From positions 1 through 36,171 of the IMG/VR virus record IMGVR_UViG_3300042109_000082: a stretch of 36,171 nucleotides of DNA. The stretch is one strand, 5' to 3'. Both the position numbers and the translations under genes were made by a program. Source of the stretch: a virus (taxonomy: Duplodnaviria; Caudoviricetes). Position 1 is the stretch's first letter, and every line of letters starts with the position of its first letter. Below, one piece after another: positions 400-14,591 of the stretch. The notes under the pieces were generated by a model. It had not been told where the DNA came from, did no database searches, and saw only the letters and a list, made by a program, of their open reading frames with translations.

Positions 400-432
400 G
401 CTACCGCCCCGGCGCGAGGCCGAGGCGGCAGC
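400..432 (-). terminator. Strong hairpin / probable intrinsic terminator after the membrane-protein cluster
   Basis: Minus strand GCTGCCGCCTCGGC-CTCGC-GCCGGGGCGGTAGC: 14-bp stem with two G-U pairs valid only on the minus strand, followed by a weak ATTT tail. Confidence 0.55.
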
Positions 433-453
433 TCGAACAGTTCCCCTTGTCCG

Positions 454-591
454 TCAGTCCTTCTTGCCGGGAATCCATCCCGCGATCTTCGACAGCGGGA
501 CGAGATGCCCGCCGATGTAGCCGATGGCGAAGGCAGCGACCGCACCCCACACGCTGCCGATCAGACTCTCAAGGCTCGCAAGCGTCATCAT
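454..591 (-). CDS. 45-aa membrane protein, holin-like candidate
   Basis: MMTLASLESLIGSVWGAVAAFAIGYIGGHLVPLSKIAGWIPGKKD; AAGGAG SD upstream; one hydrophobic helix and a basic C-terminus. Below the ORF-track cutoff. Confidence 0.7.
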   Translation of the reverse strand: MMTLASLESLIGSVWGAVAAFAIGYIGGHLVPLSKIAGWIPGKKD

Positions 592-594
592 GGT

Positions 595-1125: not shown

Positions 1126-1958
1126 GAGACGAAGCGCACCGCGAGGCCGACACTGATGTTCGATGCGGTGCCTGTGGACATGGTGATTGATGGCGTTACG
1201 GTCGGAGCCGCAGTACCGAGGGCCGCGAAGCAGGTCAGCTTGTCAACGCCACAGAGTGCGATGTACGGACTGTCGTTGGTGCCAAGTGGATGCGGGTTCG
1301 AGCCCGAGAGGCTTCCACCGTACTGCGAGTGCCCGTTTAGGGTTTCAAACACCGGAGCCGTAGAAGATCCTCGCAAAAGAGAAGCGATGGAGGTTCGCGC
1401 CAGTCCATTGTCGCTCGCGGTAGCGATTCCGTAGTTTGACGGACACGCTGCCGAGTTGTCGCTGTAGTAGTTGAAAATGTTGCCTGCACCTCCGCCTGTG
1501 TTTGCAGCGAGTCGCCACGCGCCAAGAGCGCACCAGTATCCGTAAGTGCTAGGAGACACGGCGCTTGTCATCGAGGCCGTGCTTGGGTTGTAGGTGTATT
1601 CCGATGGCGCATTCGGAATACGACCCGCGAAGATGAATCGCAGCGGGTTTGTGCTAGCACCAACGACCTGAAGATTAGCGGTCGCAAAAGCATCGGTTGC
1701 GGCGGACACCGTGTAGTTCAGCACCGAGTACGGGATGAAACCACGCGCCCATCCGGGAACATCAAGCACCACGGAGTACTGTGCATCGGCTTCCGATCCC
1801 GTCAGAATCTCGTTGATGGTGTTCGGCTCTTCAAGCGTCTTCGTGACATCCTTGTGAATCAGGTAGAGGGCCGATCCGTGGTTTGAGAGCGTCGCGAGAC
1901 GCGAGGTCTCGCCCGGAACGGTGGTTTCCTTGAAGGTTTGGGCAGGAAAAACGCTCAT
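1122..1958 (-). CDS. Hypothetical protein (278 aa, Ser/Thr/Gly-rich, possibly virion-associated)
   Basis: Start re-called at MSVFPAQTF (ATG 1958) with AAAGGAAG SD; the upstream part of the track ORF overlaps another gene. Confidence 0.7.
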   Translation of the reverse strand: MSVFPAQTFKETTVPGETSRLATLSNHGSALYLIHKDVTKTLEEPNTINEILTGSEADAQYSVVLDVPGWARGFIPYSVLNYTVSAATDAFATANLQVVGASTNPLRFIFAGRIPNAPSEYTYNPSTASMTSAVSPSTYGYWCALGAWRLAANTGGGAGNIFNYYSDNSAACPSNYGIATASDNGLARTSIASLLRGSSTAPVFETLNGHSQYGGSLSGSNPHPLGTNDSPYIALCGVDKLTCFAALGTAAPTVTPSITMSTGTASNISVGLAVRFVS

Positions 1959-1960
1959 GG

Positions 1961-2245
1961 TCAGGGCTTCCTTTCGAGGCGGTCGAGCCGCAGTTGAATG
2001 CTGTCGATGCGTGCGCCGAACTCGCGGTCGCTCGCGGAGAGGGTGGACACGGCCTTCACGAGGTCGGAGGTGATCGTCGCCAGTTCCTTGATGCGCTCGC
2101 CCTGACCGTCGAGGGTCGCGTCTCGGCGACCGATGGTGAGGAACACGCCCGCGACCGAGCCGAGCAGCACTACGGTCTGCAAGCCCGCGAACACGGTTTG
2201 GAGGTTGATCTGCTTGCCGATCTTCACTTCGTCCGAGGTGGTCAT
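1961..2245 (-). CDS. Membrane protein, one TM helix plus coiled coil (holin/i-spanin-like candidate)
   Basis: MTTSDEVKIGKQINLQTVFAGLQTVVLLGSVAGVFLTIGRR...IDSIQLRLDRLERKP; ATGA coupling to the upstream gene. Confidence 0.65.
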   Translation of the reverse strand: MTTSDEVKIGKQINLQTVFAGLQTVVLLGSVAGVFLTIGRRDATLDGQGERIKELATITSDLVKAVSTLSASDREFGARIDSIQLRLDRLERKP

Positions 2246-2553
2246 GTCTTGGCCTTTGGACGGGATGGTAGCGGGTGCCGTCGCCATGCCAAAGAGAAAA
2301 GGACACGGGCCACCACCGCCGCCGCGTCGGTCACGGTTTCCTCCGCAAGCGAAGGGATCGCCGCGTGGAGGGTCTCGTGGACGGTGACCTCGAGGAGCCG
2401 TTGCGCTCGGAGGTTGCGCCGGATTCGGATGGTGGGGTGTGGCCCCGGCGGGTGGTCGCAGTCGCCGTCGCGATCCTTGGGCAGCTCGCGCGCCTTGACC
2501 ATGCGGACGCGCCACCGCCGCCCGTTGATCGTGGCTCGCGTTTCAAGTCGCAC
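2242..2553 (-). CDS. Minimal zincin-like metallopeptidase (HExxH)
   Basis: LEVTVHETLHAA motif followed by EE; adjacent to a phosphoesterase, a common pairing in phages. Confidence 0.7.
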   Translation of the reverse strand: MRLETRATINGRRWRVRMVKARELPKDRDGDCDHPPGPHPTIRIRRNLRAQRLLEVTVHETLHAAIPSLAEETVTDAAAVVARVLFSLAWRRHPLPSRPKAKT

Positions 2554-3508
2554 GGGTCACCTCGGCGGCGAGTCTGTAGTCCTTCTGCGTCCCGGCGATG
2601 TGCAGGCGCATCCACACCGCGCCGACTGGCTTGGGCGGCAGTCCCTTCTCCAGTTCCCAACCGCCGAAGCCGTCCGAGTGCGACCGCTTGTACGAACCGA
2701 TGCGGACATGGATCTGCTCATCGAGTACGACCTCGGCTCGGCCCATGAACTGCCGCACGCGCTCCTGCGCGATTGGAACGATGTAGTGCGTGTGCGTGTG
2801 GCCGTTGATGACGAGGTTCGCATCGGGGTAGATGGCGGCATCCCGACGAACCGCGAGGCTTCCGTGGCTCATCGGTGATGCCCCGCCGGAACCGTGAAAC
2901 GCCTTGCACTTGAACGAGTACGAGCCTCCGTTCCTCGAGACGAGCCGGAACAGGATCCACCCGCCGTAGCCGCTGCTGTAGACCGGGCACGGGCCCGCCG
3001 CGCTCAACCCCGCGCAGAGCCTCTCGGTGAGGTCGGATTCATGTCGGCGAGTTATGGCTGTTTCGTGATTTCCACGGAGGATCGCCACCCACCGATCCGC
3101 GTACTTGCCGCCGTAGAACTTGATCGCCTCGCGAACGAGCGCGTCGAGGTAGTCGCCGCACTGGTACTCATCTCGCAACGCGCTGCGGTCTGCTCGAGGA
3201 TCCCACTTGCCCTGCATGGCGCAGAACAGGTCGCCGCAGTCGATGATGCCGCCCTTCCGGCGCACGATCTCGTCGAGGTGCTTGCGCTCGAGTTCGTGGT
3301 CGGTCTTGGCGTGGTCGTGGTGCCGATCTGACGAGAGGAGGCAATGCCATTCGAACTCGTGCGGCGTGTCGCACAGCATCGTCACCCGGTGGATGTTGCG
3401 GGCGAGTTTCTCGACCGTCCATTGCGTGCCCGGCGTGATGCCTTCGCGCCAGTAGTGATCCTTCAGCTCCTCGCGGATGCGTTCCTTGTCGCAGCGTCGG
3501 GTCATCAT
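2543..3508 (-). CDS. Calcineurin-like metallophosphoesterase
   Basis: All five motifs in order: SDRH, GDLF, GNHE, FHG, GHTH. Confidence 0.9.
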   Translation of the reverse strand: MMTRRCDKERIREELKDHYWREGITPGTQWTVEKLARNIHRVTMLCDTPHEFEWHCLLSSDRHHDHAKTDHELERKHLDEIVRRKGGIIDCGDLFCAMQGKWDPRADRSALRDEYQCGDYLDALVREAIKFYGGKYADRWVAILRGNHETAITRRHESDLTERLCAGLSAAGPCPVYSSGYGGWILFRLVSRNGGSYSFKCKAFHGSGGASPMSHGSLAVRRDAAIYPDANLVINGHTHTHYIVPIAQERVRQFMGRAEVVLDEQIHVRIGSYKRSHSDGFGGWELEKGLPPKPVGAVWMRLHIAGTQKDYRLAAEVTRAT

Positions 3509-3945
3509 CGCACCTCGTTCAGGAGGAGTTCGACGCGCGGGTTCTTCGCGTCCACGAGTATCACGAGCGGAAGGTGCGTCAGGGCGTTGTCATCGCGGAG
3601 CAGGCCCGCGTCTACGAGACCGTCGAACACGGCCTTGAGGCTCGCCAGGCAGTTGTCCTTGTCGCGGCGGCGAGCGTCTCGAGCGAACCAATGCACCTCA
3701 CAGGTCGCGTCCTTCCACCCACCTTTGACATCGGCCTCGTACATGGCGACCTGTGCCGCAGCCCACGCCTCCGTTCGCGCACGCTTCACGGCCTTGAACT
3801 TCACGGCCCAATGGCACCGCGCGTTCGGCGAGAGCGTCCGAGCAGGGGTGCCGACCGTGACGGTGAGCGACTCGGCCACGGGTGCATTGTGGCCGTCGCC
3901 ATCATCCGGTGGAAGGGATCGCGCCGTCCGTGGCTCGTCTCCCAT
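3505..3945 (-). CDS. rusA: RusA-like Holliday junction resolvase
   Basis: SPN...RRRDKDNCLASLKAVFDGLVDAGLLRDDN...NPRVEL (DxDN, K, D, DD catalytic pattern). Confidence 0.85.
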   Translation of the reverse strand: MGDEPRTARSLPPDDGDGHNAPVAESLTVTVGTPARTLSPNARCHWAVKFKAVKRARTEAWAAAQVAMYEADVKGGWKDATCEVHWFARDARRRDKDNCLASLKAVFDGLVDAGLLRDDNALTHLPLVILVDAKNPRVELLLNEVR

Positions 3946-3960
3946 CGTGAACCTCCTCGC

Positions 3961-4212
3961 CTACTGGTCGTCCTCTCGTGGTCTGAACTTGCGCCTCGGC
4001 AACGGCTCGACGGCGGCGAACACCTGTGCCGCGAGCTTCAGGCCCGCGCGTGCTTCGTCTAGGTCGTACTGCGTGGGGTAGTGCTTCAGGAGTCGCCGCG
4101 CCTCGGCCCGGAGTTCACCCGGCACCCCCGGCGTGCGCTTGGGGTCAACAAGTGCCGCGAGGAAGTGCCGGGTTTTGGCGATGGCTCGGAATCGTTCGTG
4201 TGGCAGGGTCAT
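3961..4212 (-). CDS. BPSL0761-like family protein
   Basis: MTLPHERFRA...TPGVP...RAEARRLLKHYP signature recognised from memory. Confidence 0.7.
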   Translation of the reverse strand: MTLPHERFRAIAKTRHFLAALVDPKRTPGVPGELRAEARRLLKHYPTQYDLDEARAGLKLAAQVFAAVEPLPRRKFRPREDDQ

Positions 4213-4248
4213 GGCGCAGGAATCCCTAGTCCCTTATGCGAGACCATC

Positions 4249-4800
4249 TTACCGCCAATCGGAATGATGCAGAACGGTCAACTTCCTGACATCGAGCAGC
4301 CACGATTCCTTCGCATTGCCCGACTGATCGAACGCTCGGGCTTGATACTCGTGCCGACACGATCCGCTGTCTTCGATTGCCTTTCGGATTTGTGCGAGTG
4401 TTCCGACCGCGACCAGTCGCATCGGTTCGACTGTCACGGCCTGCGAGTCTGGTGTGGGCTGATACTTCATGCCTTCGCCCCACAGGACATCGAACAGCAC
4501 TTGGATATCCGGGTACTGTTTTCGATACCGCTGCCCGTCCTTCGTGTTGAATGTGACGGTGTACTGGGGATCGAGCTTGTAGAGTGCTTGGGCGCGATAG
4601 AACGGCGTTCTGACGGTCTTGAGGTCTGCCGGGTTTCCGTCGTAGATCAGGTCATAGGTGTAGGGATCGGTGGTCTTCGCGGGGTTGACCGCCACGGGCA
4701 TGTCGAGCGTCAGGAAAGCCCATCGGCAGAAGGTCGCTTCCGTCTTGGGGCCGAACTCTTCGCACCATGCTCGCTTGTCTTCGTTGCTGACTGGTCTCAT
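4249..4800 (-). CDS. Putative PD-(D/E)xK-fold nuclease-like protein
   Basis: Start re-called at MRPVSNEDK (ATGA overlap); E...YTYDL...ADLKT pattern. Confidence 0.55.
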   Translation of the reverse strand: MRPVSNEDKRAWCEEFGPKTEATFCRWAFLTLDMPVAVNPAKTTDPYTYDLIYDGNPADLKTVRTPFYRAQALYKLDPQYTVTFNTKDGQRYRKQYPDIQVLFDVLWGEGMKYQPTPDSQAVTVEPMRLVAVGTLAQIRKAIEDSGSCRHEYQARAFDQSGNAKESWLLDVRKLTVLHHSDWR

Positions 4801-4949
4801 CGGTTGACCTCCGATTCGTCGGCCTTGCCGTCCTGCTTCGCCAGTTCCGCTCGAAGCCGCTTGATCTCCGCAGCGGCCTCCAGCGCGATGCCGTAGCCGT
4901 AAGCCTGCCATAGCCCTTCCAGCCGTTCCACAATGTCGCGTTCGTTCAT
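4797..4949 (-). CDS. Small hypothetical protein (DIVERL...EAAAEIKRLR type)
   Basis: MNERDIVERLEGLWQAYGYGIALEAAAEIKRLRAELAKQ; ATGA overlaps at both ends. Confidence 0.75.
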   Translation of the reverse strand: MNERDIVERLEGLWQAYGYGIALEAAAEIKRLRAELAKQDGKADESEVNR

Positions 4950-5338
4950 AGCCCGTTCTCCGCATCCATCTTGGCGAGCCGATCCAGCGGCGATTCGCGG
5001 AAGCAGTCCCATTGCAATGCCGCCGCGATGTCCTCGGGCCGCTTGCCTTGGATTGCTGCCGCTCGGTGTCTGCATACCTCGCGCCGGAGCAGGTCGCGCT
5101 CGCGCACCGCTTGGTCGCAGCGTTTCTGTAGGTCGATGATCCACGCTTGATTTGCTTCGTCTGATTTTGTGCGATCCCAAATCGCTTGTCCAGATAAAGC
5201 CCTCGCCTCGTCGCGCTCGACGCGTAGGCGTTCGATTTCATAGATTGCTAATTTCAATCCCATTGCAATTCTAAGATTTCCACACGCCGCATCGCTGCAT
5301 TGAATTCTTCGTAGAGTTTCGATGATGTCCTCGCTCAT
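4946..5338 (-). CDS. Hypothetical protein, ERDEAR...WDCF paralog 3
   Basis: ORF track; contains ERDEAR, ERDLLRR and QWDCFRE. Confidence 0.8.
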   Translation of the reverse strand: MSEDIIETLRRIQCSDAACGNLRIAMGLKLAIYEIERLRVERDEARALSGQAIWDRTKSDEANQAWIIDLQKRCDQAVRERDLLRREVCRHRAAAIQGKRPEDIAAALQWDCFRESPLDRLAKMDAENGL

Positions 5339-5598
5339 TTACCATCCTCTCTGAAGCAATCCCATCCATGCTGCTTTGCAAAATCTTCAGGCGACCATTC
5401 ACGCGGTTCATCATCTCCCATGCACGATTGCAAACAGGCGATTCGCCTCGCCTCGTCGCGCTCGGCGGTGAGACGGGCTATCTCGCGCTCCAGTTCACGG
5501 GCAAAATCTGAAAGAACAATGAACTCCGACCGCAGACCGTCATCGCTCCACAGTTCTACTTCTGCTTTGTCGGTGCGTGGTGTTTTGGTGTCGTTCAC
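5335..5598 (-). CDS. Hypothetical protein, ERDEAR...WDCF paralog 2
   Basis: GTG start re-called at 5598 (AGGAGG SD, GTGA overlap); TPRTD...FARELERE...ERDEARR...GWDCFREDGK. Confidence 0.8.
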   Translation of the reverse strand: MNDTKTPRTDKAEVELWSDDGLRSEFIVLSDFARELEREIARLTAERDEARRIACLQSCMGDDEPREWSPEDFAKQHGWDCFREDGK

Positions 5599-5825
5599 TT
5601 GCCGTCCTCCTTGTAGCAGTCCCAGCCTCGCTCTAATGCAACATCCTTTTCCGTCTTTACCCAACTCCGGAGCAACCAGCACACTTTTCGCCTCGCCTCA
5701 TCGCGCTCCCGCCGCGCCTCGCGCAATGCTCGCCAGAGCGCAGCCTCAACCGCGTGTCGCGTGGCCGGGATCTTGACCTGTGATGTTTCGTCGGTCGCTG
5801 GATCTGTCGGTTGATGATTTGTCAC
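5595..5825 (-). CDS. Hypothetical protein, ERDEAR...WDCY paralog 1
   Basis: GTG start at 5825 overlapping the upstream stop; ERDEARR...GWDCYKEDGK. Confidence 0.75.
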   Translation of the reverse strand: MTNHQPTDPATDETSQVKIPATRHAVEAALWRALREARRERDEARRKVCWLLRSWVKTEKDVALERGWDCYKEDGK

Positions 5826-5826
5826 G
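5794..5826. repeat. 33-bp direct repeat, copy 1
   Basis: gtcgctggatctgtcggttgatgatttgtcacg; 31/33 identical to 6356..6388, with a 24-bp perfect core. Confidence 0.95.
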
Positions 5827-6349
5827 TCGTGCTCCACAAACTGTCTTCTGTATCGGACAATTCAGGCAAAACGATTGGTGCGTAACTGTTATTCAAAATT
5901 CTTGACCATCGACCTTTCAAACACGTCGGCTGATCGGTTCTTCGCTGCTTGCCATCCGTGTGTTTCCATTGGCCTCCGCCAGCAGCACCCTCATAAGTCC
6001 AACCGCTCGCTTTCAAACTGATGCCGCTTTCTGTTTCCAACACATACGTCTGGATTCGCAGATAACCCATTTCTTTTCCAATGCGTGCTGCAGCTGCGTA
6101 CAGTGCACTGCAAGCATTTGCTTGCCCATTGGTTACTAGCCGTGTGACTTCAAGGACTTCTCGCGGCAGGCCAGCAAGTCTCGCTACTGGCCTACCAACG
6201 ATTGCTGCGCCACATACTGTCCCATCTTCAGTAACAACTCCAATGCTGAAACGGTGTCCCTGACACGGCTTGTGATGGCGATGCCATGCCGATACGACAA
6301 GATTTGCTTCCGTCAATTCCAATGGAATCACCTTGAGGCGGGATTGCAT
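5822..6349 (-). CDS. XF1762-family (Mom-related, GNAT-like) protein
   Basis: EANLVVSAWHRHHKP..GHRFSIG...CGAAIVGRPVAR...LEVTRL...NACSALY...MGYLRIQTY....ESGISLKASGW signature; visibly more AT-rich than its neighbours. Confidence 0.85.
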   Translation of the reverse strand: MQSRLKVIPLELTEANLVVSAWHRHHKPCQGHRFSIGVVTEDGTVCGAAIVGRPVARLAGLPREVLEVTRLVTNGQANACSALYAAAARIGKEMGYLRIQTYVLETESGISLKASGWTYEGAAGGGQWKHTDGKQRRTDQPTCLKGRWSRILNNSYAPIVLPELSDTEDSLWSTT

Positions 6350-6355
6350 GTGCTA

Positions 6356-6388
6356 GTCGCTTGGTCTGTCGGTTGATGATTTGTCACG
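6356..6388. repeat. 33-bp direct repeat, copy 2
   Basis: gtcgcttggtctgtcggttgatgatttgtcacg; encodes the same MTNHQPTD start as copy 1. Confidence 0.95.
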
Positions 6389-6842
6389 CGAAGACTCCCT
6401 TCCGTTCCATTGCTGCCCAAACGATTCCGGTGGCATACGCACTCCACTCCTCGACCTTGCCCGGTAGCGGATCGCCGCCGAGCGCACCGACCTGTCTCGC
6501 ATAGGAGACACCTACCGCGATCTCCTCGCGCGTAGCGAGCATGAGCATCCGCTTCATGTCCTCGCGGTCGCGGTCTACCTCGGCCGGGTTGATGCCCTCG
6601 CGCCACGCCTGCGCCTGCACTACCTCGCGCCGCTTGTTGCGCTTGATTTCTCCGACCAGTTCCTCGGGCTTCACGTGCGAGCGCGAGAGTGTGCGCCGCA
6701 TGGACTTGCAGGCGGCTGCGATCTCCTCGTGCGTGAACTCCTCCAGCACCTTCGCGGCCTCGTCGTACCGCTTGGAATCCGGCTTGGCCCACGAGGAGCC
6801 GCCAAAGTACTCGAGGATCGTGGCTGCGGTTTCGGCTCTCAT
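6384..6842 (-). CDS. Replication-associated protein (positional helicase loader/inhibitor analogue)
   Basis: Directly downstream of the initiator with ATGA coupling; helical pattern LEEFTHEEIAAACK...HVKPEEL. Function inferred from position. Confidence 0.55.
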   Translation of the reverse strand: MRAETAATILEYFGGSSWAKPDSKRYDEAAKVLEEFTHEEIAAACKSMRRTLSRSHVKPEELVGEIKRNKRREVVQAQAWREGINPAEVDRDREDMKRMLMLATREEIAVGVSYARQVGALGGDPLPGKVEEWSAYATGIVWAAMERKGVFA

Positions 6843-7615
6843 GGTGTCTCCACCGGGTCAAGGTAGCGGCCCTGCCCAAGCCAAGTCGCCGGGTGCGGGA
6901 TGAACTTCGGGTCGGTGAGCTTGTGCTGCTTGGCGAGCGCGTCGATCCGCTCCTCCATCCAGATGAGGGCATCGTGCGGCTCGTCATGCTCGAAGTCCTC
7001 CATGACCTCGCGCACGGCCTTGTCGAGCAGCGTCATAGCCTTCTTCCTGCCCACCTTGCGCGGGAACCTCTGCCACAGCGCGTCGAGCGCGGCCTGCGGG
7101 ATCGTGGCTCGCCTGTTCGGGCTCGGATCATCTGACGGTGAAACGGGCTCGACGGCGGAGCCGTTGAGCGTATCTCTGACTTTGCTTTCGCTGTCGGTTC
7201 CGATCTCGCTTTCGATTTCGTTATCGCTTTCGTTTTCGATGGCATCGTTCTGCATTGCTGCCGCATTGCGTCCGCTATGCCACCGCATTGCTGCGGCATT
7301 GCGAGCCTGCTTGCGCTTCCGGTCGCCTGCCGCAAGGCTCTTTGCCCGGATCTCCTCGCAGCGGGGATTCCGAAGCAGCCCGTCCGGGCCGAGGATGAAC
7401 TTGCGCTTGATGCGATCCCAATGCGCGACCGTTCCCGGCGCGATCTCCTCCAGCACTTGCGGGTCGGCATTTAGACCGCCGTTGCTGTACTGCTCGCAGA
7501 GCAGATACAGATACGCGAGCGCAGCTTCAGCGGGCCACCCCCTCGTAGACCACGCGAAGCGTTGGTAGTAGAACGGCATGAAACCCATCGCGCCGCTCTC
7601 GGTTTGTACACTCAC
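6839..7615 (-). CDS. Replication initiator (DUF1376/YdaU-like N-terminus, replisome-organiser-like C-terminus)
   Basis: FMPFY...AYLYLLCEQY..GGL..D N-terminus; LWQRFPRKVGRKKA and KFIPHPATWLGQGRY C-terminal motifs; CAGGAGG SD. Confidence 0.85.
   Translation of the reverse strand: MSVQTESGAMGFMPFYYQRFAWSTRGWPAEAALAYLYLLCEQYSNGGLNADPQVLEEIAPGTVAHWDRIKRKFILGPDGLLRNPRCEEIRAKSLAAGDRKRKQARNAAAMRWHSGRNAAAMQNDAIENESDNEIESEIGTDSESKVRDTLNGSAVEPVSPSDDPSPNRRATIPQAALDALWQRFPRKVGRKKAMTLLDKAVREVMEDFEHDEPHDALIWMEERIDALAKQHKLTDPKFIPHPATWLGQGRYLDPVETP
7205..7303. other. Putative replication origin (iteron-like array inside the initiator gene)
   Basis: GCATTGC at 7252, 7263, 7285, 7296 and degenerate GCTATGC at 7274 (exact 11-bp period), next to a T-rich 6-bp-period tract (TTCGAT/TTCGTT/ATCGCT) at 7205..7240. 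Confidence 0.65.
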
Positions 7616-7655
7616 TCGAAGCCTCCTGCGCTCTCTATCAGCGCGGTTACGGTTA

Positions 7656-7688
7656 GAGACGGCTCCCGCACGCTACGGGGGCCGTTTC
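7656..7688 (+). terminator. Antisense-strand hairpin upstream of the initiator gene
   Basis: GAGACGGCTCCCG-CACGCTA-CGGGGGCCGTTTC: 13-bp stem whose two G-U pairs form only on the + strand; weak GCTTT tail. Confidence 0.4.
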
Positions 7689-7696
7689 GCTTTCCA

Positions 7697-8023
7697 TCAT
7701 CCCTGATTCTCTAGGGATTGCAAGCGTTCCGTACTGCGGTCGATCTGCGCCTTGACATCATCTAGCCACGCTTGCCTGTCCTTCGGCGAGCGGTAGAACG
7801 AATGCGCCGCTTGCTGCATCGTGAGCGCGGTGGGAGCGGTGCAGCCGATCAGCTTCGCGATGCCTGACGGCGTAGCGTTCGTGTAGGTGTGGAGCGCGTC
7901 ATACGCGAGTCGCCTCGCCGCGACGGCTTCCTTGCCGATGCCGGAGCCGGGTTGCGGGAACTCGAAGCCTCGCGCCTTCAGCGCGGCCTCGACAGCGGGA
8001 ACGACGATACTGGGGGCGTACAT
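7697..8023 (-). CDS. DnaA domain IV-like helix-turn-helix protein
   Basis: Start re-called at MYAPSIV (8023); AVAARRLAYDALHTYTNATPSGIAKLIG resembles the DnaA_C pattern ARQIAMYL.R..T..SL..IG..FG. Confidence 0.6.
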   Translation of the reverse strand: MYAPSIVVPAVEAALKARGFEFPQPGSGIGKEAVAARRLAYDALHTYTNATPSGIAKLIGCTAPTALTMQQAAHSFYRSPKDRQAWLDDVKAQIDRSTERLQSLENQG

Positions 8024-8538
8024 CAGGAAACCTTCAGGTAGGGTTGCTTCGGAACCAGTCGCGCGAAGGGCAGAACCGTACCACCGTCGAGCGCGGCGCG
8101 GATCTTGTCCTTGTCGATTTCGCGCGTGACCACCTCGCGGTAGTAGTCCTCTGGGATCGCGTCCACGATCTCCATGCTCGGCTTGCCTCCCGGCATCGCC
8201 GCCGTGGCTCGCCAGCGCGAACATTCAAGTTTCTTGATGCCTTGTGCCTGCATCGCACGAAGCACTTGGCCCTTGAACCACTCGGCTACCGCCTCGTCGC
8301 GCTTGGCGCGAGCCTTTAGCCTGTCGGCCTCCGCCTTGCGAGCCGCCGCACGGTGTTCGATCTCCGCGACCAGCGAGAGCACATCGTCAATCGCTGCGGG
8401 CAGGTTCTCCGCCTGCTGCGCAAGAATGTCGAAGTGGCCCTCCATCTCGGCGGTCAACTCGCCCTCGCTCTCGGTGAGCATCGCTTCCAGTTCGCGGGCC
8501 GCGTTGCTTGTCTCGTACAGTCGTTGAATTGCGCTCAT
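8023..8538 (-). CDS. Siphovirus Gp157-family protein
   Basis: LYE...KAEADRLKARAK...AMQAQGIKKL...IPEDY...IDKDKIRAALDGG..LPFARL; CAAGGAG SD; start re-called at 8538. Confidence 0.85.
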   Translation of the reverse strand: MSAIQRLYETSNAARELEAMLTESEGELTAEMEGHFDILAQQAENLPAAIDDVLSLVAEIEHRAAARKAEADRLKARAKRDEAVAEWFKGQVLRAMQAQGIKKLECSRWRATAAMPGGKPSMEIVDAIPEDYYREVVTREIDKDKIRAALDGGTVLPFARLVPKQPYLKVS

Positions 8539-8560
8539 TGGGTCTCCTTGATTCGATGGC

Positions 8561-8875
8561 TCACGCCGCCGCCTTTGCAATCACGCTCACGGATTCCAAA
8601 CGCAACGAAGCGCAAAAACGACCCCATTGAACTTTCTCAAACTCCATCCAAGAGGTTGCGACACGCAAAGAAAGCGCATTGCCAAACTCAATGCCGTCCT
8701 TGTCAACTCGCACGAATCGCGCCGTGATGATTTCGCTGGTTGACTTCCAGCGAGCATTCTTACGCACCGTAACCTTGCGACCAATGCACTTCCATCCGGC
8801 CACAATGCACGCCGGGGTATTGCGCTGCTCAAGGTTCGTGTAGACGGTTCCAATTTCAAACTTGTTGCTAGCCAT
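8561..8875 (-). CDS. Hypothetical protein (first gene after promoter PL2)
   Basis: Start re-called at MASNKFEIG with GAAAGGA SD; more AT-rich than its flanks. Confidence 0.7.
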   Translation of the reverse strand: MASNKFEIGTVYTNLEQRNTPACIVAGWKCIGRKVTVRKNARWKSTSEIITARFVRVDKDGIEFGNALSLRVATSWMEFEKVQWGRFCASLRLESVSVIAKAAA

Positions 8876-8958
8876 TGTGGTGTCCTTTCGGTTGGGTGTC
8901 TCGCAAGCCGCCCCGGCTTGCATGGGTGAACTGTAACCCATATCGGCGCAGACGCAAG
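8876..8958 (-). promoter_or_regulatory. Early promoter PL2 plus leader (hairpin, GAGACACC, SD)
   Basis: TTGCGT-16-TACAGT with GCCGATA in the spacer, then GCAAGCC-GGGGC-GGCTTGC hairpin, GAGACACC and GAAAGGA; near copy of 10287..10367. Confidence 0.75.
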
Positions 8959-9000
8959 GCTTTCTTATAGATTTCTTCTAGGATTCTTCAGATACCCAAT

Positions 9001-9052
9001 AACCCCTAGCCGGGGAGGGACTTGCGTCAACCTCCCCGGCCTTCCGGGGGTT
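9001..9052 (-). terminator. Long hairpin with GCAA tetraloop immediately after the ERF stop
   Basis: AACCCC..GCCGGGGAGG.(TT)GAC-GCAA-GTC-CCTCCCCGGC..GGGGTT, followed by ATT. Confidence 0.6.
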
Positions 9053-9990
9053 TAGAACGGGATCTCGTCCTCGGCTGGCACGGTCGCCGCCGCTGGCTGC
9101 TCCGATTGTACCGCAGTCCGCAGGCCGTACAGCGTCCAGCCGTATTGGCCCTCCTGCACGAAGGCTTCCACGGTGTCGCCGCCCATCGCGTCCTGCGCTG
9201 CCTGCATGAGAGCCTGATCGAAGCACGAGCACCATTGCTCGCCCGATCCGGTGTCGAACAGGATCGGCCAGCGGTTTCCGCCCTTCGCCGTGGGCTTGCC
9301 CTGCCCGACCTTGACCACCTTCAATCCCTGCCGCCATGAGCAGTCCTTCGCGGGCCGGGATGCCATGACCTCGCCAAACGCGCTAGGAGCCGCCGTGGCG
9401 GGTTCCTGCGCCTTGGCCGGGGTCTGGGTCGCCTGCGGGGCCGGAATCGACCGTGGCGCATCCTGCGCGGTCTGGCGGGGTGCCGGAGCGTTTCCGCTAG
9501 AGTTGGCCGTAGGTGTAGCGGAATTGCTCCGCGCCGGGGCCGGGGTGGCCCGCTTGGGCTGGTACTTGGAATCATCCTGCTTATCCATTTCGTTCTCGTC
9601 CTCGCGCGGGACGAGCAGCAAGTCGCGCAGGTAGTAGCCCATGCTGGCGGTCAAAGCACCAGCCATCGCCTTGTCGATTGGCTGCTGGCCGCGCGGCACG
9701 GCGACCCACGCGACCTCATCGGTGACGCTTTCGCCGCTACCCGCGTGGGTCAAGATGAACTGGCTTGTGACCAGCCCGCCGCCCTCCGGCGTTCCATCGA
9801 ACTTCCATCCCGCGCGGCGCAGAGTCAACCCAGCACCGTGCAGTACCTCGCGGCAAGCCGCGATCATCGTTTCGCTGCTGGTGTAGGCGTACCCGTAGGT
9901 TCCGCCCTTGAATTGCGAATCCTTCCCGACGCTGGGGAGGGCGCGTTGCGCCGCCAGAAGGGCGGTCGCTAGTGTCTCGGTCTTGGTCAT
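9052..9990 (-). CDS. ERF-family single-strand annealing recombinase with SSB-like acidic tail
   Basis: LATALLAAQ...VGKDS...YAY...L.H.GSGES...AMAGALT...Y.L..LL.V..ED; Pro/Ala linker; C-terminus EDEIPF; CAGGAG SD; start re-called at 9990. Confidence 0.85.
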   Translation of the reverse strand: MTKTETLATALLAAQRALPSVGKDSQFKGGTYGYAYTSSETMIAACREVLHGAGLTLRRAGWKFDGTPEGGGLVTSQFILTHAGSGESVTDEVAWVAVPRGQQPIDKAMAGALTASMGYYLRDLLLVPREDENEMDKQDDSKYQPKRATPAPARSNSATPTANSSGNAPAPRQTAQDAPRSIPAPQATQTPAKAQEPATAAPSAFGEVMASRPAKDCSWRQGLKVVKVGQGKPTAKGGNRWPILFDTGSGEQWCSCFDQALMQAAQDAMGGDTVEAFVQEGQYGWTLYGLRTAVQSEQPAAATVPAEDEIPF

Positions 9991-10058
9991 GGTGTCTCGT
10001 TTCTCCTGCAAACGGTGCAGGCCGTCCCGCCCCCGGAGGGGCGGTGGGGCCGGAGCCG

Positions 10059-10286
10059 TCAGAGCCATCCGATGATGTTGCAATGAAGTGTCACCGTGTA
10101 ATCCCGGTTCTCCTCCACGCGCTGGTTGCGATAGGTTCGCGCTGCGTCCTCGCAGTCTGTTCGGAACACAACTTCTTCGTTTCCGTACGAGTCGCAGGCA
10201 ATCACCCACCACGCTGCACGACCCAAAATCGTAGTGCATCGAATCTCGGTCTTGTAGCCACCTTGAATCACGGTTGCGGTCTTCAT
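10059..10286 (-). CDS. Hypothetical protein (first gene after promoter PL1)
   Basis: ORF track; GAAAGGAAA SD. Confidence 0.75.
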   Translation of the reverse strand: MKTATVIQGGYKTEIRCTTILGRAAWWVIACDSYGNEEVVFRTDCEDAARTYRNQRVEENRDYTVTLHCNIIGWL

Positions 10287-10367
10287 TGTTGTTTCCTTTC
10301 GCTTGGGTGTCTCGTCAGCCGCCCCGGCTGACGGGTGAACTCTACCTACTATCGGCTTGAGCGCAAG
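10287..10367 (-). promoter_or_regulatory. Early promoter PL1 plus leader (hairpin, GAGACACC, SD)
   Basis: TTGCGC-16-TAGAGT with GCCGATA in the spacer, then CGTCAGCC-GGGGC-GGCTGACG hairpin, GAGACACC and GAAAGGA. Confidence 0.75.
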
Positions 10368-10386
10368 AACCCTTCAGCCATATTTC

Positions 10387-10493
10387 CACATTTCGTGCAA
10401 ATAAATACGGGCTTGCATATTCAACAGTCCATAGAATATTTCACATTCTGTCTAGATTCTTTGTTCTATGGACTTGCAATCGGTCGAAATGTG
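10387..10493. repeat. Nested inverted repeats in the AT-rich divergent control region
   Basis: AGTCCATAGAA (10426..10436) / TTCTATGGACT (10464..10474) and CACATTTCG (10387..10395) / CGAAATGTG (10485..10493). Confidence 0.75.
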
Positions 10494-10561
10494 ATCATAC
10501 TTGACCGCGTGGTCGGGGCGACCACCCGAACCCGCCGGACGCGGGCGACAAGGAGACACCC
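10473..10561 (+). promoter_or_regulatory. Early rightward promoter PR plus leader
   Basis: TTGCAA-16-CATACT with GTCGAAA in the spacer, then GTGGTC-GGGGC-GACCAC hairpin and AAGGAGACACCCATG. Confidence 0.7.
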
Positions 10562-10645
10562 ATGAACACCCGACAGACACAACACCTGACCGTGGACGAG
10601 GCGGCGTATCAGGCTCGACTCGCCGCGAAGGGAGGTGCGCGATGA
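10562..10645 (+). CDS. 27-aa leader peptide / small protein
   Basis: MNTRQTQHLTVDEAAYQARLAAKGGAR; AAGGAG SD; ATGA-coupled to the next gene. Confidence 0.6.
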   Translation: MNTRQTQHLTVDEAAYQARLAAKGGAR

Positions 10646-10950
10646 ATCGCACCATCGCGCAGCACTTGGAGGGCGACCTCGATCCGGAGTTCCTCGCCGG
10701 AATGCTCTGCAAGCGTGCCGGGATGTCCCCCGCGCAGCTCACGGCGGCGTTCGGCGTTGGTGCCGCGCTCTACCGCCTCAACGCGGAGGAACTGCGCTTG
10801 GAACAGGTCGAGCGCGGTGAGTTCCAAATGTCGCTCGCCATCGCCGAGCAGTGCGTCTCGGATGCCGTTGATGCCTACGACGCAGCCGTCGCGACCTTCG
10901 TGAAACTGTGCAGCGATCTTCGACTGGAGGTGGTGGATGCGCCTCGCTGA
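10642..10950 (+). CDS. Hypothetical protein
   Basis: Start re-called at MNRTIAQ with GGAGGT SD. Confidence 0.75.
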   Translation: MNRTIAQHLEGDLDPEFLAGMLCKRAGMSPAQLTAAFGVGAALYRLNAEELRLEQVERGEFQMSLAIAEQCVSDAVDAYDAAVATFVKLCSDLRLEVVDAPR

Positions 10951-11146
10951 ACGGTGGGTGAGCGATAGAGATAAGCAGCCGCACCAGATGCGCTTGCAAC
11001 CCGATGCGCCGCTCCTCACGCTCGAGGAGTGCGCAGAGGCGTTGGGGATGACCTACGAGCAGGTCAAGTACCTGCACGCGAGTGCGCTTCAGAAGCTTGG
11101 TGCCGCCCTTTCCGTCTACGGCTACCACAAGGAGATCGTGCGATGA
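10937..11146 (+). CDS. Stand-alone sigma-70 region 4-like HTH protein
   Basis: LTLEECAEALGMTYEQVKYLHASALQKL resembles region 4.2 (TLEEVG..F.VTRERIRQIE.KAL.KL); GGAGGT SD. Confidence 0.75.
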   Translation: MRLAERWVSDRDKQPHQMRLQPDAPLLTLEECAEALGMTYEQVKYLHASALQKLGAALSVYGYHKEIVR

Positions 11147-11265
11147 GCCTACTTTGGCTGATGCCCGAGGATGACCTCCCGCGCCCGAAGTCGCCGGAGC
11201 CCTACGGCCTGCCGGAACCGGAGCCCGAGCCGGAGCCTGATCCGTTCCGCAGGGAGGAGCCATGA
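11143..11265 (+). CDS. Small Pro/Glu-rich protein
   Basis: MSLLWLMPEDDLPRPKSPEPYGLPEPEPEPEPDPFRREEP; AAGGAG SD; ATGA overlaps on both sides. Confidence 0.6.
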   Translation: MSLLWLMPEDDLPRPKSPEPYGLPEPEPEPEPDPFRREEP

Positions 11266-11684
11266 CCTACCGCCACGAGAGCCGCCTCGCGTTCGACGCG
11301 ATCACGCCGTCCATCGGCGAACTCGCACAGCGCGTCCTCGACCTGGTTCGCAGCAGCGGGTCGCACGGCGCGACCTGTGACGAGGCCATTGCGATCCTCG
11401 GCCTGACGCACCAGACCGCCTCGCCCCGGTTCACGGAACTGGAGGCGAAGGGGTTCATCGTTCGCACCGAGAAGCGTCGCCGCACGCGCAGCGGGAACCA
11501 AGCCGCGATCTACATTCTTGCCGATTCGCCCGGATTGTTCTCAAGTCCGAGGGTCGGGCGAGCCGATCTAATGCGTGCAGTCATACGGGCGGCAATCACC
11601 GCCCGGACTACAGGGGACTGGATGGCGTTTGACGAAGCCCTCGGCGCGTTGCCGAAGGCCGAGCGAGCGCGACTTCAGAAGTAG
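11262..11684 (+). CDS. Winged-helix DNA-binding protein
   Basis: RVLDLVR...GATCDEA...LGLTHQTASPRFTELEAKGFI...RRRTRSG..A.IY. Confidence 0.8.
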   Translation: MTYRHESRLAFDAITPSIGELAQRVLDLVRSSGSHGATCDEAIAILGLTHQTASPRFTELEAKGFIVRTEKRRRTRSGNQAAIYILADSPGLFSSPRVGRADLMRAVIRAAITARTTGDWMAFDEALGALPKAERARLQK

Positions 11685-11692
11685 GAGACACC

Positions 11693-11893
11693 ATGTTGAC
11701 GATCCGACTGACACGCGCGGAGGCGAAGTTCATCCGCAACCGAATGCGCCTGACCGCAATGAACGAAACGGGCGAGGACGCGGCGACCGCCGCGCAGATC
11801 GCCGATGCCATCGAACCCGAACTGGCGGGCTCCGCTCTGTTCCGCGAGATCCGCGAGGTGTTCGCTGACCTCTACCCGGAGGGCCGCGAATGA
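11693..11893 (+). CDS. Hypothetical protein
   Basis: ORF track; TAGGAGACACC-ATG ribosome-binding site. Confidence 0.75.
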   Translation: MLTIRLTRAEAKFIRNRMRLTAMNETGEDAATAAQIADAIEPELAGSALFREIREVFADLYPEGRE

Positions 11894-12015
11894 GCGCGAA
11901 GCGACAGCATGACCTCGTGGACTTCTACCTCGGCTTCGCCTTCGGCCTGTTCGGCGTGGCCGCGTTCCTCGTAGGCTCGTGGAGTCACGGATATCTTGAA
12001 TGGCTGATCCCATGA
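11890..12015 (+). CDS. 41-aa single-pass membrane protein
   Basis: MSAKRQHDLVDFYLGFAFGLFGVAAFLVGSWSHGYLEWLIP; ATGA overlaps at both ends; not in the ORF track. Confidence 0.65.
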   Translation: MSAKRQHDLVDFYLGFAFGLFGVAAFLVGSWSHGYLEWLIP

Positions 12016-12338
12016 CACCCGCCCAAACAGCTCTCGACATCATCGAAACCGTCCCGGCGATTGTGCCATGCTGTTCTGGCGATCAGGCCGTGCCATCCTC
12101 GACCATTGCAGCTCTACGCGAGGCGATTCGCAACGCGGCAGAGGACGAGCGCATCATGGCTCGAATCCTCGCTCGTGCGCTTCCAGTCGCGCAGGCCCAT
12201 GTGGTGAGGATGCAGGCCGAAGCAGACGGTGCGGTCGCCCTCAACGGTAAGCCGCACCCGGTCAGCGAAGAGCTGCTCCTACAGGCTCGCGAACTGCTGT
12301 ATTCGATCCGAGCGCGGGTGGGAGTGTCCGATGATTGA
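12012..12338 (+). CDS. Hypothetical protein
   Basis: Start re-called at MTPAQTAL (ATGA overlap). Confidence 0.7.
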   Translation: MTPAQTALDIIETVPAIVPCCSGDQAVPSSTIAALREAIRNAAEDERIMARILARALPVAQAHVVRMQAEADGAVALNGKPHPVSEELLLQARELLYSIRARVGVSDD

Positions 12339-12819
12339 GGCACTCCTGATCCTCGTCGCGCTGATCTGTGGCGCGACCTTGTGGCACCTGTTCACCCGCA
12401 ACACGCCGCCGCAGGCGCGGATCGTGCTGCCCGGCCACCCAATGCACCGAGCCGACCGGGCACGCGAGATTCCGTGGCACGAGCCGCGCGTACCGCTCGC
12501 GGCCACGCACATCGCTTGGATCATGCACGGCGAGGGCGATCTCGGAACCGTCCACACGCTCTACCTTCAGACGCTCGCATCGCTTCGGCAGGAGGTGCAG
12601 GATGCGAACTCGCCGTGGGGGCCGATCATCGCGCACAGCATCGAACTGGAGTGCGACATTCGGGGCCGGGGCTGCGTTCCCACCTCCGAGGTGATGTACG
12701 CCGTCGCTCGCGTGGACAGCGACGGTAACGAGTACTGGCTTTCGCGCGACGGTTCGTGGGTCGCTCGATGGAGCGCGGATGCCGAAATCTTTGAGGTGTT
12801 TCCCGGCCAAGTGCGCTAG
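12331..12819 (+). CDS. Membrane-anchored hypothetical protein
   Basis: Start re-called at MIEALLILVALICGATLWHLF (N-terminal TM); GGGAG SD. Confidence 0.7.
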   Translation: MIEALLILVALICGATLWHLFTRNTPPQARIVLPGHPMHRADRAREIPWHEPRVPLAATHIAWIMHGEGDLGTVHTLYLQTLASLRQEVQDANSPWGPIIAHSIELECDIRGRGCVPTSEVMYAVARVDSDGNEYWLSRDGSWVARWSADAEIFEVFPGQVR

Positions 12820-12835
12820 GCCGCTACAATCCACC

Positions 12836-12916
12836 CGCACGGGGTCGCCCCCCAATTCATCCCGTGCGAAGGTGTCTCGCCCCGGTGGCCCTCGCGGCTG
12901 CCGGGGCTTTTCGTTT
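12836..12916 (+). ncRNA. Candidate trans-acting antisense small RNA
   Basis: TACAAT at 12825..12830; hairpin CGCACGGG/CCCGTGCG with a C-rich loop (CGCCCCCC); unpaired linker AAGGTGTCTC; terminator hairpin with U tail. Loop and linker are complementary to repeated early-leader motifs. Confidence 0.65.
12879..12916 (+). terminator. Intrinsic terminator
   Basis: GCCCCGGTGGCC-CTCGC-GGCTGCCGGGGC-TTTTCGTTT; G-U pairs valid on the + strand. Confidence 0.85.
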
Positions 12917-12928
12917 AGGCTACCGCGC

Positions 12929-13222
12929 ATGGCAAGGATGCCCCGACCCAAACCTCCCCCCGACCTCTACCGCGCACTCGAGGCCGTAGGCGACCTCCTG
13001 CGCGAGCGCGAGATGCCCGACCTCGCAGGCGATGTCGAGGCCGTCGTAGACGCGCTGCGCTCCATGCTTGAGCTGACCCGCTACGGCGACGCGCTGTGGG
13101 GGGACGAGATACGAAACCTCCTCTGCATCCGGCACGCGCTTCGGCCCCGGCGTGGAACCGTGGACGATCCCATGCGCGGTCGCCGCAAGGCACGCCGCAT
13201 CCGCAGGCGGTCGTTCAGATAG
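12929..13222 (+). CDS. Hypothetical protein with Arg-rich C-terminus, possibly leaderless
   Basis: MARMPRPKPPPDLY...RGRRKARRIRRRSFR; TAGGCT 7 nt before the ATG and no SD there. Confidence 0.65.
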   Translation: MARMPRPKPPPDLYRALEAVGDLLREREMPDLAGDVEAVVDALRSMLELTRYGDALWGDEIRNLLCIRHALRPRRGTVDDPMRGRRKARRIRRRSFR

Positions 13223-14591
13223 TCACGAGCGAATCGGAGAGCGTCGGCGTGGTCGAGACGGGCAGATAGATGCCCTGCCGCTCGAGGCCGACGAACCGCG
13301 CGAACCCCGCCATGAACTTGCCGTTCGTGCTGGTGGTGCTTGTGACCGCCGTCGAGAAGGTGTCGTTCTCGGCCCAGTCCGTCATGCCGGGGTAAATCAC
13401 GAACGACGGCCCACCCGCGTAGGCGCGAACCATCGGCACGAGAACGAGTTCATCGATCACAAGCGTGTTGCCCGACGCAATGGCCGTACTGCTGTAGATG
13501 TCGAGATAGACCGTGGTCGGGATCGCGCTCTTCGCCAAGCTGAAGGTCGTGCTGCTCACGGCGTAGGAAGTCGTGACACTCGACAGGTCGAGCGTGATCT
13601 CGCTGCTGCCCGTCAGCACGGTGCTCGAAGAATTGCGTAGGCCGATCTTCACGACACCCGTCGTTCCGCTCGCCGTTTTCTTCGCGTAACAAATCAGCGC
13701 GTAGTCCGTGTCCGGCTGAATCGTCACGGGCGTGCTGTTCGAGTAGGCGAGCTGCTGCCGCAGGCTCGTGAGCGTCGAGCCGTCGCCCACGATGGACAGT
13801 GCATAGTCACCGCGTGCCGGGCTGCTCGACCGAAGCACTTGCGAGCCCGCCGATCCGGTGGTGATCGTCCACTGCGCCGGAGTGTTCGTAGACCAGTTCT
13901 CGAACGCGCCGTTCGCGATGATGCTCTTCCCCGGCTCGCCAGTCGGGCTATTGATCGCGGCAGGCGTGGCCGTGATCGTCGCGGCGGTGCCACTGCCACC
14001 CGGCCACTCGGTGTTCGTGTAGGCGCGGTTCGCATCGCCGCCGAGCCGGAACGAGGCCGCTCCAAAGTTCAGCACATTGCCGGGAGCGACACAGGTGCCC
14101 GTGATCGTCTCGGCATACATCTCCTGCAGGAAGTCGGTCGAGGCCGGGCGGTACGCCCGCGCAAGGACGGTGCCGTTGCCGAGGTTGCCCGCCGTGATCG
14201 TCGTGCTGATGCTGCTCGTGCCGACCGAGCGGAAGGACGCGCTCTGCGCGATCATCGAATCCCGCAAGCCCTTGTAGGCCGTGGTCAGCGTGCCGTCGTA
14301 GAGCTGCCCCTCGGCGCGGATGGTGTTCAGGATCAGGTTGTTCGCCGCCGACTGGAGCATCGGGTACAGGCTCGTCCCAAGCCTCGCCGGGAAGCCCGTG
14401 ATCGGTGCGTCCATGCCCGTGAACGGGGCGACCGCCGAACGGTAGTCCGTGCCATCGAACTGCGTCAGCAGGCTCGACAGGTCTGCGCCGTACAGGGGGG
14501 ACATCCGGGTCTTGATGTCGTTCGCGTACCCGAAAATCTTGCCGAGTCGCGTTGCGAAGTTGGTCAGATTGACGGACGAGAGCGTTGGCAT
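13215..14591 (-). CDS. Virion protein with carbohydrate-binding-module-like domain (paralog B)
   Basis: IIANGAFENWSTNTPAQWTI...LVIDELVL is a CBM4/9-like pattern; full-length resemblance to 23049..24320. Confidence 0.75.
   Translation of the reverse strand: MPTLSSVNLTNFATRLGKIFGYANDIKTRMSPLYGADLSSLLTQFDGTDYRSAVAPFTGMDAPITGFPARLGTSLYPMLQSAANNLILNTIRAEGQLYDGTLTTAYKGLRDSMIAQSASFRSVGTSSISTTITAGNLGNGTVLARAYRPASTDFLQEMYAETITGTCVAPGNVLNFGAASFRLGGDANRAYTNTEWPGGSGTAATITATPAAINSPTGEPGKSIIANGAFENWSTNTPAQWTITTGSAGSQVLRSSSPARGDYALSIVGDGSTLTSLRQQLAYSNSTPVTIQPDTDYALICYAKKTASGTTGVVKIGLRNSSSTVLTGSSEITLDLSSVTTSYAVSSTTFSLAKSAIPTTVYLDIYSSTAIASGNTLVIDELVLVPMVRAYAGGPSFVIYPGMTDWAENDTFSTAVTSTTSTNGKFMAGFARFVGLERQGIYLPVSTTPTLSDSLVTI

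Follow-up and report, generated by a model that had tools for sequence, protein, structure and literature searches.

A candidate trans-acting antisense RNA complementary to tags in the early leaders of an uncultured aquatic phage

Comparison across related phages points to a conserved intergenic unit that probably encodes a trans-acting antisense RNA of 75 nt, which matches by complementarity the tags in the early leaders of the same uncultured, aquatic, tailed phage and predicted to shut the tagged genes off during lytic growth. The element is real and conserved, and the comparative evidence that its RNA would pair with the phage's own early leaders is strong. Its anatomy, its + strand orientation, its complementarity to the leaders and its co-variation with them across lineages can be read directly from the sequences. 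Because tag and RNA change together across related phages, the RNA likely switches the tagged genes off by base pairing. Phage early-gene shut-off is usually put down to proteins; in this phage a single small RNA seems to reach the two divergent early operons by way of a tag built into their leaders. If this is true, a post-transcriptional master regulator would be added to lytic phage biology.

The predicted RNA unit and the leader tags

The window, by which we mean the whole 36,171-base stretch analysed, is a virus record rated complete. Its terminase, portal, head and tail genes all lie on the - strand, and its early region consists of two divergent operons. The leftward operon contains ERF recombinase, Gp157/Gam-like, replication initiator, Mom-like, RusA and exonuclease genes, and the rightward one small genes, among them those for a sigma-region-4-like and a winged-helix protein. 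The Mom-like DNA modification gene occupies 5822-6349, and a DNA methyltransferase gene lies at 35450-36088. No cultured relative was found in the phage collection, the closest cultured terminases being less than 28% identical, and the sRNA region had no DNA match among 50,697 phage records.

The unit lies 5-20 nt past the last stop codon of the rightward (PR) operon, whose final gene (12331-12819, +) has no family match and serves as an upstream marker. A -10 box, TACAAT (12825-12830, +), with neither a -35 nor a CGATA element, is followed by a predicted sRNA of about 75 nt (12836-12912, +; 5' end deduced from the -10 box) composed of hairpin, linker and terminator. The C-rich, 13-nt loop of hairpin 1 (12836-12868, +) contains CGCCCCCC, and its seed GGUCGCCCC (12843-12851, +) is the complement of GGGGCGRC at the tops of leader hairpins. 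Between the two hairpins lies an open 10-nt linker (12869-12878) with the linker seed GGUGUCUC (12871-12878, +), the complement of GAGACACC. The intrinsic terminator (12879-12916, +) has a 12-bp stem spanning 12879-12907 and then a T tract. The first-pass annotation had placed the TACAAT box, hairpin 1, the linker and the terminator correctly. The fold of 12836-12912 has a z score of -3.9 on the + strand and -1.8 on the - strand. The linker is predicted to be open only for an RNA starting at about 12836-12837, since a 6-nt 5' extension would pair with it (4.3 kcal/mol). Pairing of read-through RNA over the seed recurs in several lineages and exceeds a random null in 1 of 15 units at the 5% level, a hint that read-through RNA might mask the seed as a safety catch.

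In agreement with the earlier proposal that this is not a described RNA family, the unit had no Rfam match; at E values up to 5 the window gave just two chance matches elsewhere, and none of seven relatives yielded a match at the gathering score. Thirteen RNA runs contained at most 0.13 of the sequence words. Four runs compared with 8500-14000 gave scattered low-depth contigs, from early and late genes alike, which show neither strand nor ends; one such contig spans 12826-13336 and none is confined to the unit.

The tag GAGACACC occurs eight times in the window, against 1.26 expected from shuffles, and none of 100 shuffles reaches eight. Six copies lie on the mRNA strand of early leaders, all at the places originally named; another is the unit itself, and the eighth, which the first-pass list had left unmentioned, runs antisense inside gene 6384-6842 (6505-6512, +; codons Gly-Val-Ser) and is probably incidental. 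Outside the unit, six of the seven copies end no more than 25 nt from a coding-strand start. Of the 31 starts listed from 411 to 12929, six have the tag in front of them; none of 23 late-gene starts does, and the 22,956 late-region bases contain no copy. As a bare 8-mer it falls outside the window's 30 most over-represented words, so its significance comes from its position.

Chance, helped by Shine-Dalgarno (SD) and C/A-rich spacer bias, is a very improbable explanation of these matches. GGAG is indeed common in the leaders of this phage, and the 8-mer is not among the most enriched words. On the other hand, five of the 23 late leaders have GGAG and none carries the tag, and three of the six leader sites are CGAGACACC without GGAG, two of these (at PL1 and PL2) lying upstream of a separate AAAGGA. 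SD bias therefore does not account for the tag, in line with the earlier expectation of enrichment beyond it. The chance reading is already contradicted by the comparison of own with swapped pairs, in which swapped pairs score far lower, and by the loop co-variation, both described below; the corresponding tag of one lineage (type B), ACUAGG, moreover lies mostly outside the SD.

Three early promoters head the tagged transcripts: PL1 (TTGCGC, a CCGATA spacer element and TAGAGT; 10339-10366, -), PL2 (8930-8957, -) and PR (10474-10501, +). PL1 and PL2 are two copies of one cassette of promoter, GGG-topped hairpin, tag and SD. In the PL1 leader (10306-10325, -) the hairpin-top site is at 10318-10325 and GAGACACC at 10306-10313, upstream of the SD of gene 10059-10286; in the PL2 leader (8895-8914, -) the two sites are at 8907-8914 and 8895-8902, before gene 8561-8875. 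At both, the tag lies upstream of the SD and not on it. The PR leader (10515-10560, +) carries GGGGCGACC at 10515-10523, and its tag at 10553-10560 overlaps the SD of gene 10562-10645. The remaining copies stand immediately before the start of the ERF recombinase gene (9991-9998, -; gene 9052-9990) and in the ribosome-binding sites of gene 11693-11893 (11685-11692, +), where the site changes with the seed in types C and E, and of gene 6384-6842 (6843-6850, -), the weakest site.

When 53 leaders were ranked for pairing with the linker, accessibility included, five of the six named leaders took ranks 1-5, the ERF leader being first, and the sixth (6843) came tenth. Predicted binding energies are -10 to -16 kcal/mol for the five and -5.5 for the sixth. 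The gene behind that sixth site had been taken for a replication gene; it is unannotated and follows the replication initiator rather than being it. In the corresponding ranking for the loop, PL1 and PL2 were first and second and PR fifth. The proposal that each target is contacted by two seeds thus holds for the linker at all six leaders and for the loop at PL1, PL2 and PR only. Likewise, GGGGCGRC had been described as exposed in leader hairpins: in the predicted folds only three of its G's lie in the loop, and the rest of the site is stem. GGGGCG alone is not enriched (24 seen, 21-46 expected).

Further upstream, the ERF leader (10028-10043 in the window) and its homologs contain a strong conserved hairpin, CCGCCCC-loop-GGGGCGG, ahead of the tag. 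A pattern search of viral contigs for the leader cassette found members of this phage family only. One relative with the same cassette, L121, is a 3.2-kb contig that sits within a Luteolibacter metagenome-assembled genome (MAG) and carries phage genes only; as a pointer to the host it is too weak, and the other two matches of the search that gave it were unrelated. All three early promoters combine a -35 with a (C/T)CGA(T/A)A element between -35 and -10. This element is kept in most lineages, type C excepted, and is possibly a host promoter element or a factor site. The unit's promoter has a -10 only, a trait found also ahead of several late-side genes. In the window, the starts at 391, 589, 2245, 12929, 14591, 19688 and 25350 follow a TAnnnT box with no -35; relatives conserve the boxes at 589, 12929 and 14591, and four of the seven stand 6-7 nt before the ATG, so that the mRNAs are probably leaderless. 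Such -10-only boxes could be ordinary host promoters.

Conservation and co-variation among related phages

Relatives were gathered from viral and metagenome contigs by protein searches with ERF and the two genes flanking the unit; these searches returned none from the genome collection. One hundred loci carried the downstream gene; two were too short, and the rest collapse to 56 distinct upstream sequences. Four of 14 pattern matches (L012, L016, L018 and L019) were dropped for want of any homolog of the window's proteins. The hairpin-linker-terminator unit stands at the same place in 55 of the 56, as judged by class patterns written after the sequences had been seen. The one relative without it, L101, also lacks the tag at its homolog of gene 11693-11893 (g11693). 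Among 14 aligned type A units, the loop CCCCC is invariant, the linker core GTGTCTC is present in every row, and two-sided changes affect 10 of 16 consensus pairs (3 of 5 in hairpin 1 and 7 of 11 in the terminator). Seven type A relatives have 3-7 tag copies upstream, against 0-1 in equal lengths downstream. A CUUCCG terminator loop recurs in many relatives of types A, C, D, E and F (for example in L039, L031, L067 and L115), on stems that differ.

When a covariance model was built from these 14 units, types C, D, E and F scored only 19-27 bits at the syntenic position and L045 scored 14 bits. The model missed L044, L048, L103 and L118, and it gave 20.6 bits to L012, which is unrelated. These results do not establish that hairpin 1 is homologous from one type to another.

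In 47 of the 55 distinct units a TAnnnT box is present within the 45 nt that precede the seed pattern. This bears on two related alternatives: that the element is the 3' end of the PR mRNA, a feedback signal without a promoter of its own, or that pairing activates or processes the leaders. Both are improbable in our estimation. The unit follows the last PR-operon stop closely, and its terminator is the only strong one predicted on the + strand of the early region; the -10 box is absent from eight of the 55 units (one of them truncated), so that for some units the PR transcript, through its 3' end, may be the only source of the RNA. In most units, however, the box is at the expected distance, and in type A it lies outside coding sequence. 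Activation or processing would suit the position of the PL1 and PL2 sites, which are not on the SD; against it, pairing covers the SD or start region in four of the six window targets and in types B, C, E and G.

Our preferred reading, in which the RNA pairs with the leaders, draws its main support from the way seeds and leaders change together. The earlier suggestion that they co-vary in relatives proved right: linker, loop and leaders change together from lineage to lineage, and these natural variants are the compensatory changes otherwise made at the bench. Type A (24 of 56, the window included) has the loop CGCCCC and the linker GUGUCUC, and in 22 of 26 leaders its loop pairs best with the GGGGCG hairpin top. 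Type B (13 of 56) combines the type A loop with the linker CCUAGUGG; ACUAGG is present in 16 of 16 first-gene leaders, 13 of which have CUACUAGG (8 bp, one G-U), and GGGCG is kept in the 5' leader. Two members of this type, L044 and L045, have no GAGACACC upstream. In type C (7 of 56) the loop is GGCAUG, the leaders have other hairpins in place of the GGGGCG hairpin, and CAUGCC is found at the start codon in 8 of 8 leaders. Its linker and g11693 leader also differ together at one position, being UGGUCUCCA/UGGAGACCA in L003, L007 and L029 and UGUCUCCA/UGGAGACA in L092. Type E (5 of 56) has the linker UGUUCUCC and carries GGAGAACA in 8 of 8 leaders. The remaining types, D, F and G (3, 2 and 1 of 56), retain the GAGACAC core with lineage-specific flanks and pair over up to 11 and 13 bp; in F and G the helix measures 10-13 bp in four of five leaders.

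For types A, B and E, each compared with types of other cores, the mean helix was longest on own leaders: 8.4 for A against 5.4 on B leaders, 7.7 for B against 4.7 on A leaders, and 8.0 for E against 4.9-5.5 on others, with control leaders giving 3.0-6.5 and no pattern. Leaders were defined by gene position; two first-gene calls were corrected by hand and six unclear ones were dropped (L025 PR, L118 PL and four type E PR). In a swap test on nine phages, hand-chosen to span the lineages and the only test in which ERF leaders were entered, own pairs averaged 8.6 bp and swapped pairs 6.5, a difference that 20,000 permutations never matched. Inside the GAGACAC family own and swapped pairs lie close together (8.9 versus 8.1), and F and G account for most of what difference there is; leaders of type A phages paired no better with their own seeds than with one another's. 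A blind seed scan reached significance in only 16 of 35 phages, including 12 of the 14 of type A but none of the 8 of type B or the 4 of type C; its first-ATG start calls undercounted real leaders, and it took no account of G-U pairs. Because most seeds contain CUCC, which resembles an anti-SD, any RNA of this kind would be expected to show some of the pairing. On a tree of the downstream protein, types B, C, D, E and F each fall on one side of a branch and the backbone is unresolved; the evidence thus rests on about three to five independent switches, not dozens. Types D, F and G showed no signal when loop co-variation was tested, and one phage, L106, keeps a type A unit with a leftward first gene that lacks both sites. 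In the type G phage (L118:6400-6490, 9373-9450), GGGUU lies in the loops of two PR-leader hairpins and CAACCC in the second loop of the unit, possibly a third loop-loop specificity, which the automated test did not capture. If the proposed pairing is correct, types A, B and E would make orthogonal RNA-leader pairs available.

Directly downstream of the unit, a -10 box (TAGGCT, 12916-12921) precedes a conserved, probably leaderless gene for a 97-aa protein with an Arg-rich end (12929-13222; box and gene together 12916-13222, +). The protein has an invariant DE.RN..H...RG motif; none of its 85 homologs has a Pfam domain or an informative name, and the Atlas gave no match. L001/L026 have an insertion of about 150 bases between unit and gene, which contains several hairpins and another terminator. 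Could GAGACACC and the leader hairpins instead be sites for a protein, for example this Arg-rich product acting as a translational regulator or antitermination factor, the unit being only a terminator with an inverted copy? Nut sites have a hairpin-plus-box arrangement after promoters. The hairpin and box directly after both divergent promoters recall them, the - strand of the unit likewise reads hairpin then GAGACACC, and the 97-aa gene always adjoins the unit. The idea nevertheless seems improbable to us. The + strand is the more stable in 32 of 32 distinct units (G-U pairs 118 versus 36), and the copy in the unit tracks lineage-specific flanks of up to 13 nt and, in type C, start codons. 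The 97-aa protein, for its part, is kept while the motifs change and is present in L101, which has no unit.

Proposed action of the RNA and life cycle of the phage

Taken together, the core of the original proposal, that an antisense RNA with two seeds is directed at early leaders of the phage itself, is supported by sequence comparison. We propose that the unit (12825-12916) gives rise to a 75-nt trans-acting antisense RNA that starts at about 12836 from the -10-only promoter. Its linker GGUGUCUC would pair with GAGACACC over or just upstream of ribosome-binding sites, at the first gene of each early transcript (PL1, PL2 and PR) and at three internal genes. In the three promoter-proximal leaders the C-rich loop might also contact the GGG-topped hairpin that stands at the 5' end, nucleating on the GGG loop and then invading the stem; G-U wobble would let one loop serve both GGGGCGAC and GGGGCGGC. 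Pairing is expected to block initiation at the first gene, and this block could lower both divergent operons via polarity or decay as the infection moves on. An RNA made weaker or later than the early transcripts would thereby provide delayed negative feedback on the early genes.

We infer both the sign of this action (repression) and its timing (late). Repression is favoured because in most targets and lineages the paired stretch would take in the SD or the start codon, and weaker or later expression is suggested because the unit's promoter has a -10 only, whereas the early promoters have a -35 and a spacer element.

The first-pass annotation had called the RNA a repressor-less regulatory switch; read as a repressor-like switch in the sense of lysogeny, this part of the proposal was not supported. 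Tyrosine integrase (PF00589), serine resolvase (PF00239), S24 peptidase (PF00717) and ParA (PF13614) were found in none of 20 virus records, of which 14 are at least 90% complete and six have terminal repeats. An HTH_3 gene is present in four of these records, the window not among them, and the 61 window ORFs scanned include no antirepressor or repressor family. The life cycle, judged from gene content, is likely lytic, and the absence of integrase, resolvase, S24 peptidase and ParA from the 20 records makes a lytic early-gene shut-off more likely than a lysogeny switch.

The same leader pairing could instead serve immunity or superinfection exclusion, or steer a dormant state, as C4 and CI RNAs do. 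We consider this unlikely, if less so than the alternatives discussed above. At least four seed specificity types exist among otherwise similar phages, reminiscent of the difference in C4 specificity between P1 and P7 given in the sections of PMC5320573 used here; the window has no CI-type repressor, and exclusion during lytic co-infection needs no integrase, resolvase or ParA. This alternative is opposed by the 0 of 20 records with integrase, resolvase or ParA, and by a genome collection without any homolog of the 97-aa marker protein.

Relation to described RNAs and to start-associated sequences

P4 CI RNA is a small phage RNA in which two exposed segments act on a leader; it is an immunity factor processed from the transcript under its control. 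The unit resembles it in having two exposed segments directed against a leader. It differs in that it gave no Rfam match at E values up to 5 and in that the window encodes its own head and tail genes, rather than being the immunity region of a satellite.

The closest likeness is to the C4 antisense RNA of P1 and P7, Rfam family RF01695 (PMC2864571). As set out in the portions of the C4 literature drawn on here, one loop occludes a ribosome-binding site and another gives specificity (PMC5320573, PMC12197685, PMC8546580), and the RNA, of about 77 nt, acts in trans through two short exposed segments, at the ribosome-binding site and upstream of it; it has three stem-loops, P1-P3, and its specificity differs between the phages P1 and P7 (PMC5320573). 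Two exposed segments, one matching ribosome-binding sites and one an upstream site, are likewise predicted for the unit from its sequence and modelled fold, and its specificity also diverges between related phages. The differences are as many. Where C4 consists of three stem-loops, the unit has two hairpins and an open linker; the C4 covariance model did not match it; it has its own predicted promoter and terminator, whereas C4 is described as processed by RNase P; and it has up to six targets on separate early transcripts, whereas C4 targets an antirepressor operon. In addition, C4 comes from temperate phages, while the present phage has no sign of a temperate cycle and no antirepressor family. 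The unit would work like the P1 C4 RNA and is not a member of its family, from which it departs in sequence, structure and context.

Two further RNAs, known to us here from selected passages of their descriptions, may be regarded as functional parallels. SviR, an sRNA of the phage satellite PLE, acts in trans on the 5' UTRs of its own operons independently of Hfq and ProQ (10.1101/2022.04.08.487710) and is thus likewise an RNA of a mobile element that acts on several of that element's operons. Compared by description only, it differs in belonging to a satellite and in also targeting the helper phage, and those passages describe no shared leader tag. The C-rich loops of the actinobacterial 6C sRNA pair with G-rich mRNA sites without a chaperone (PMC6486639), much as the C-rich loop of the unit faces a G-rich site; 6C is chromosomal with many host targets, and the unit has no Rfam match to it. 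Neither the unit's RNA nor an anti-SAS RNA (see below) was found described in the literature searched. Five strings looked for are absent from six supplements of PMC10690425, among whose unnamed candidates the unit may still figure, and the main text of 10.64898/2026.10.21.760802 contains no relevant passage.

The start-associated sequences (SAS) of cluster K mycobacteriophages offer a further comparison. As far as the sections of the original report used here go, SAS is an asymmetric motif before non-structural genes, conserved beyond the SD, and four genomes carry one reversed copy apiece, at a distance from gene starts (PMC3203893). Its function is given as unknown there and, in the corresponding passages, still in papers of 2024 and 2025 (PMC11373665, PMC12699233). 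The tag of the window is also asymmetric, in one orientation and before non-structural genes, and its single reversed copy away from starts is the linker of the unit, with one further reversed copy inside a gene. In contrast, the SAS consensus GGGATAGGAGCCC is unrelated to GAGACACC, the cluster K phages are described as temperate, and they have one seed in a late leader rather than a two-seed unit running from promoter to terminator.

In four of the seven cluster K phages examined, the reversed SAS core CUCCUAUCCC lies unpaired in a hairpin loop in the late-promoter gap (L133:29874-29883, L134:28839-28848, L135:15138-15147 and L139:1637-1646). These are Anaya, CrimD, Adephagia and Mdavu, in which a 10-nt exact SAS complement occupies the loop in the last large intergenic gap; in Adephagia this gap is 92-93, where the passages on that phage indicate that late transcription appears to start. 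Hurricane, Scarlett and Krueger have 7-12 SAS copies in the stretches covered and no reversed copy there, so the reversed copy is not universal. Subcluster K8 is reported to have no SAS.

By analogy, antisense reading of tags may offer a testable explanation of the cluster K SAS. Whether phages commonly tag their early leaders and have one small antisense RNA read the tags, which would also explain SAS, is in our judgement an even bet. We are equally divided over shut-off by RNA only, with seed and tags co-evolving into specificity groups, which forms part of that general reading; the present family would then be an instance with two seeds, in lytic phages. Were it true, a question open since 2011 would become testable in cultured phages. 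The stems of the reversed-SAS hairpins differ between cluster K phages yet stay paired.
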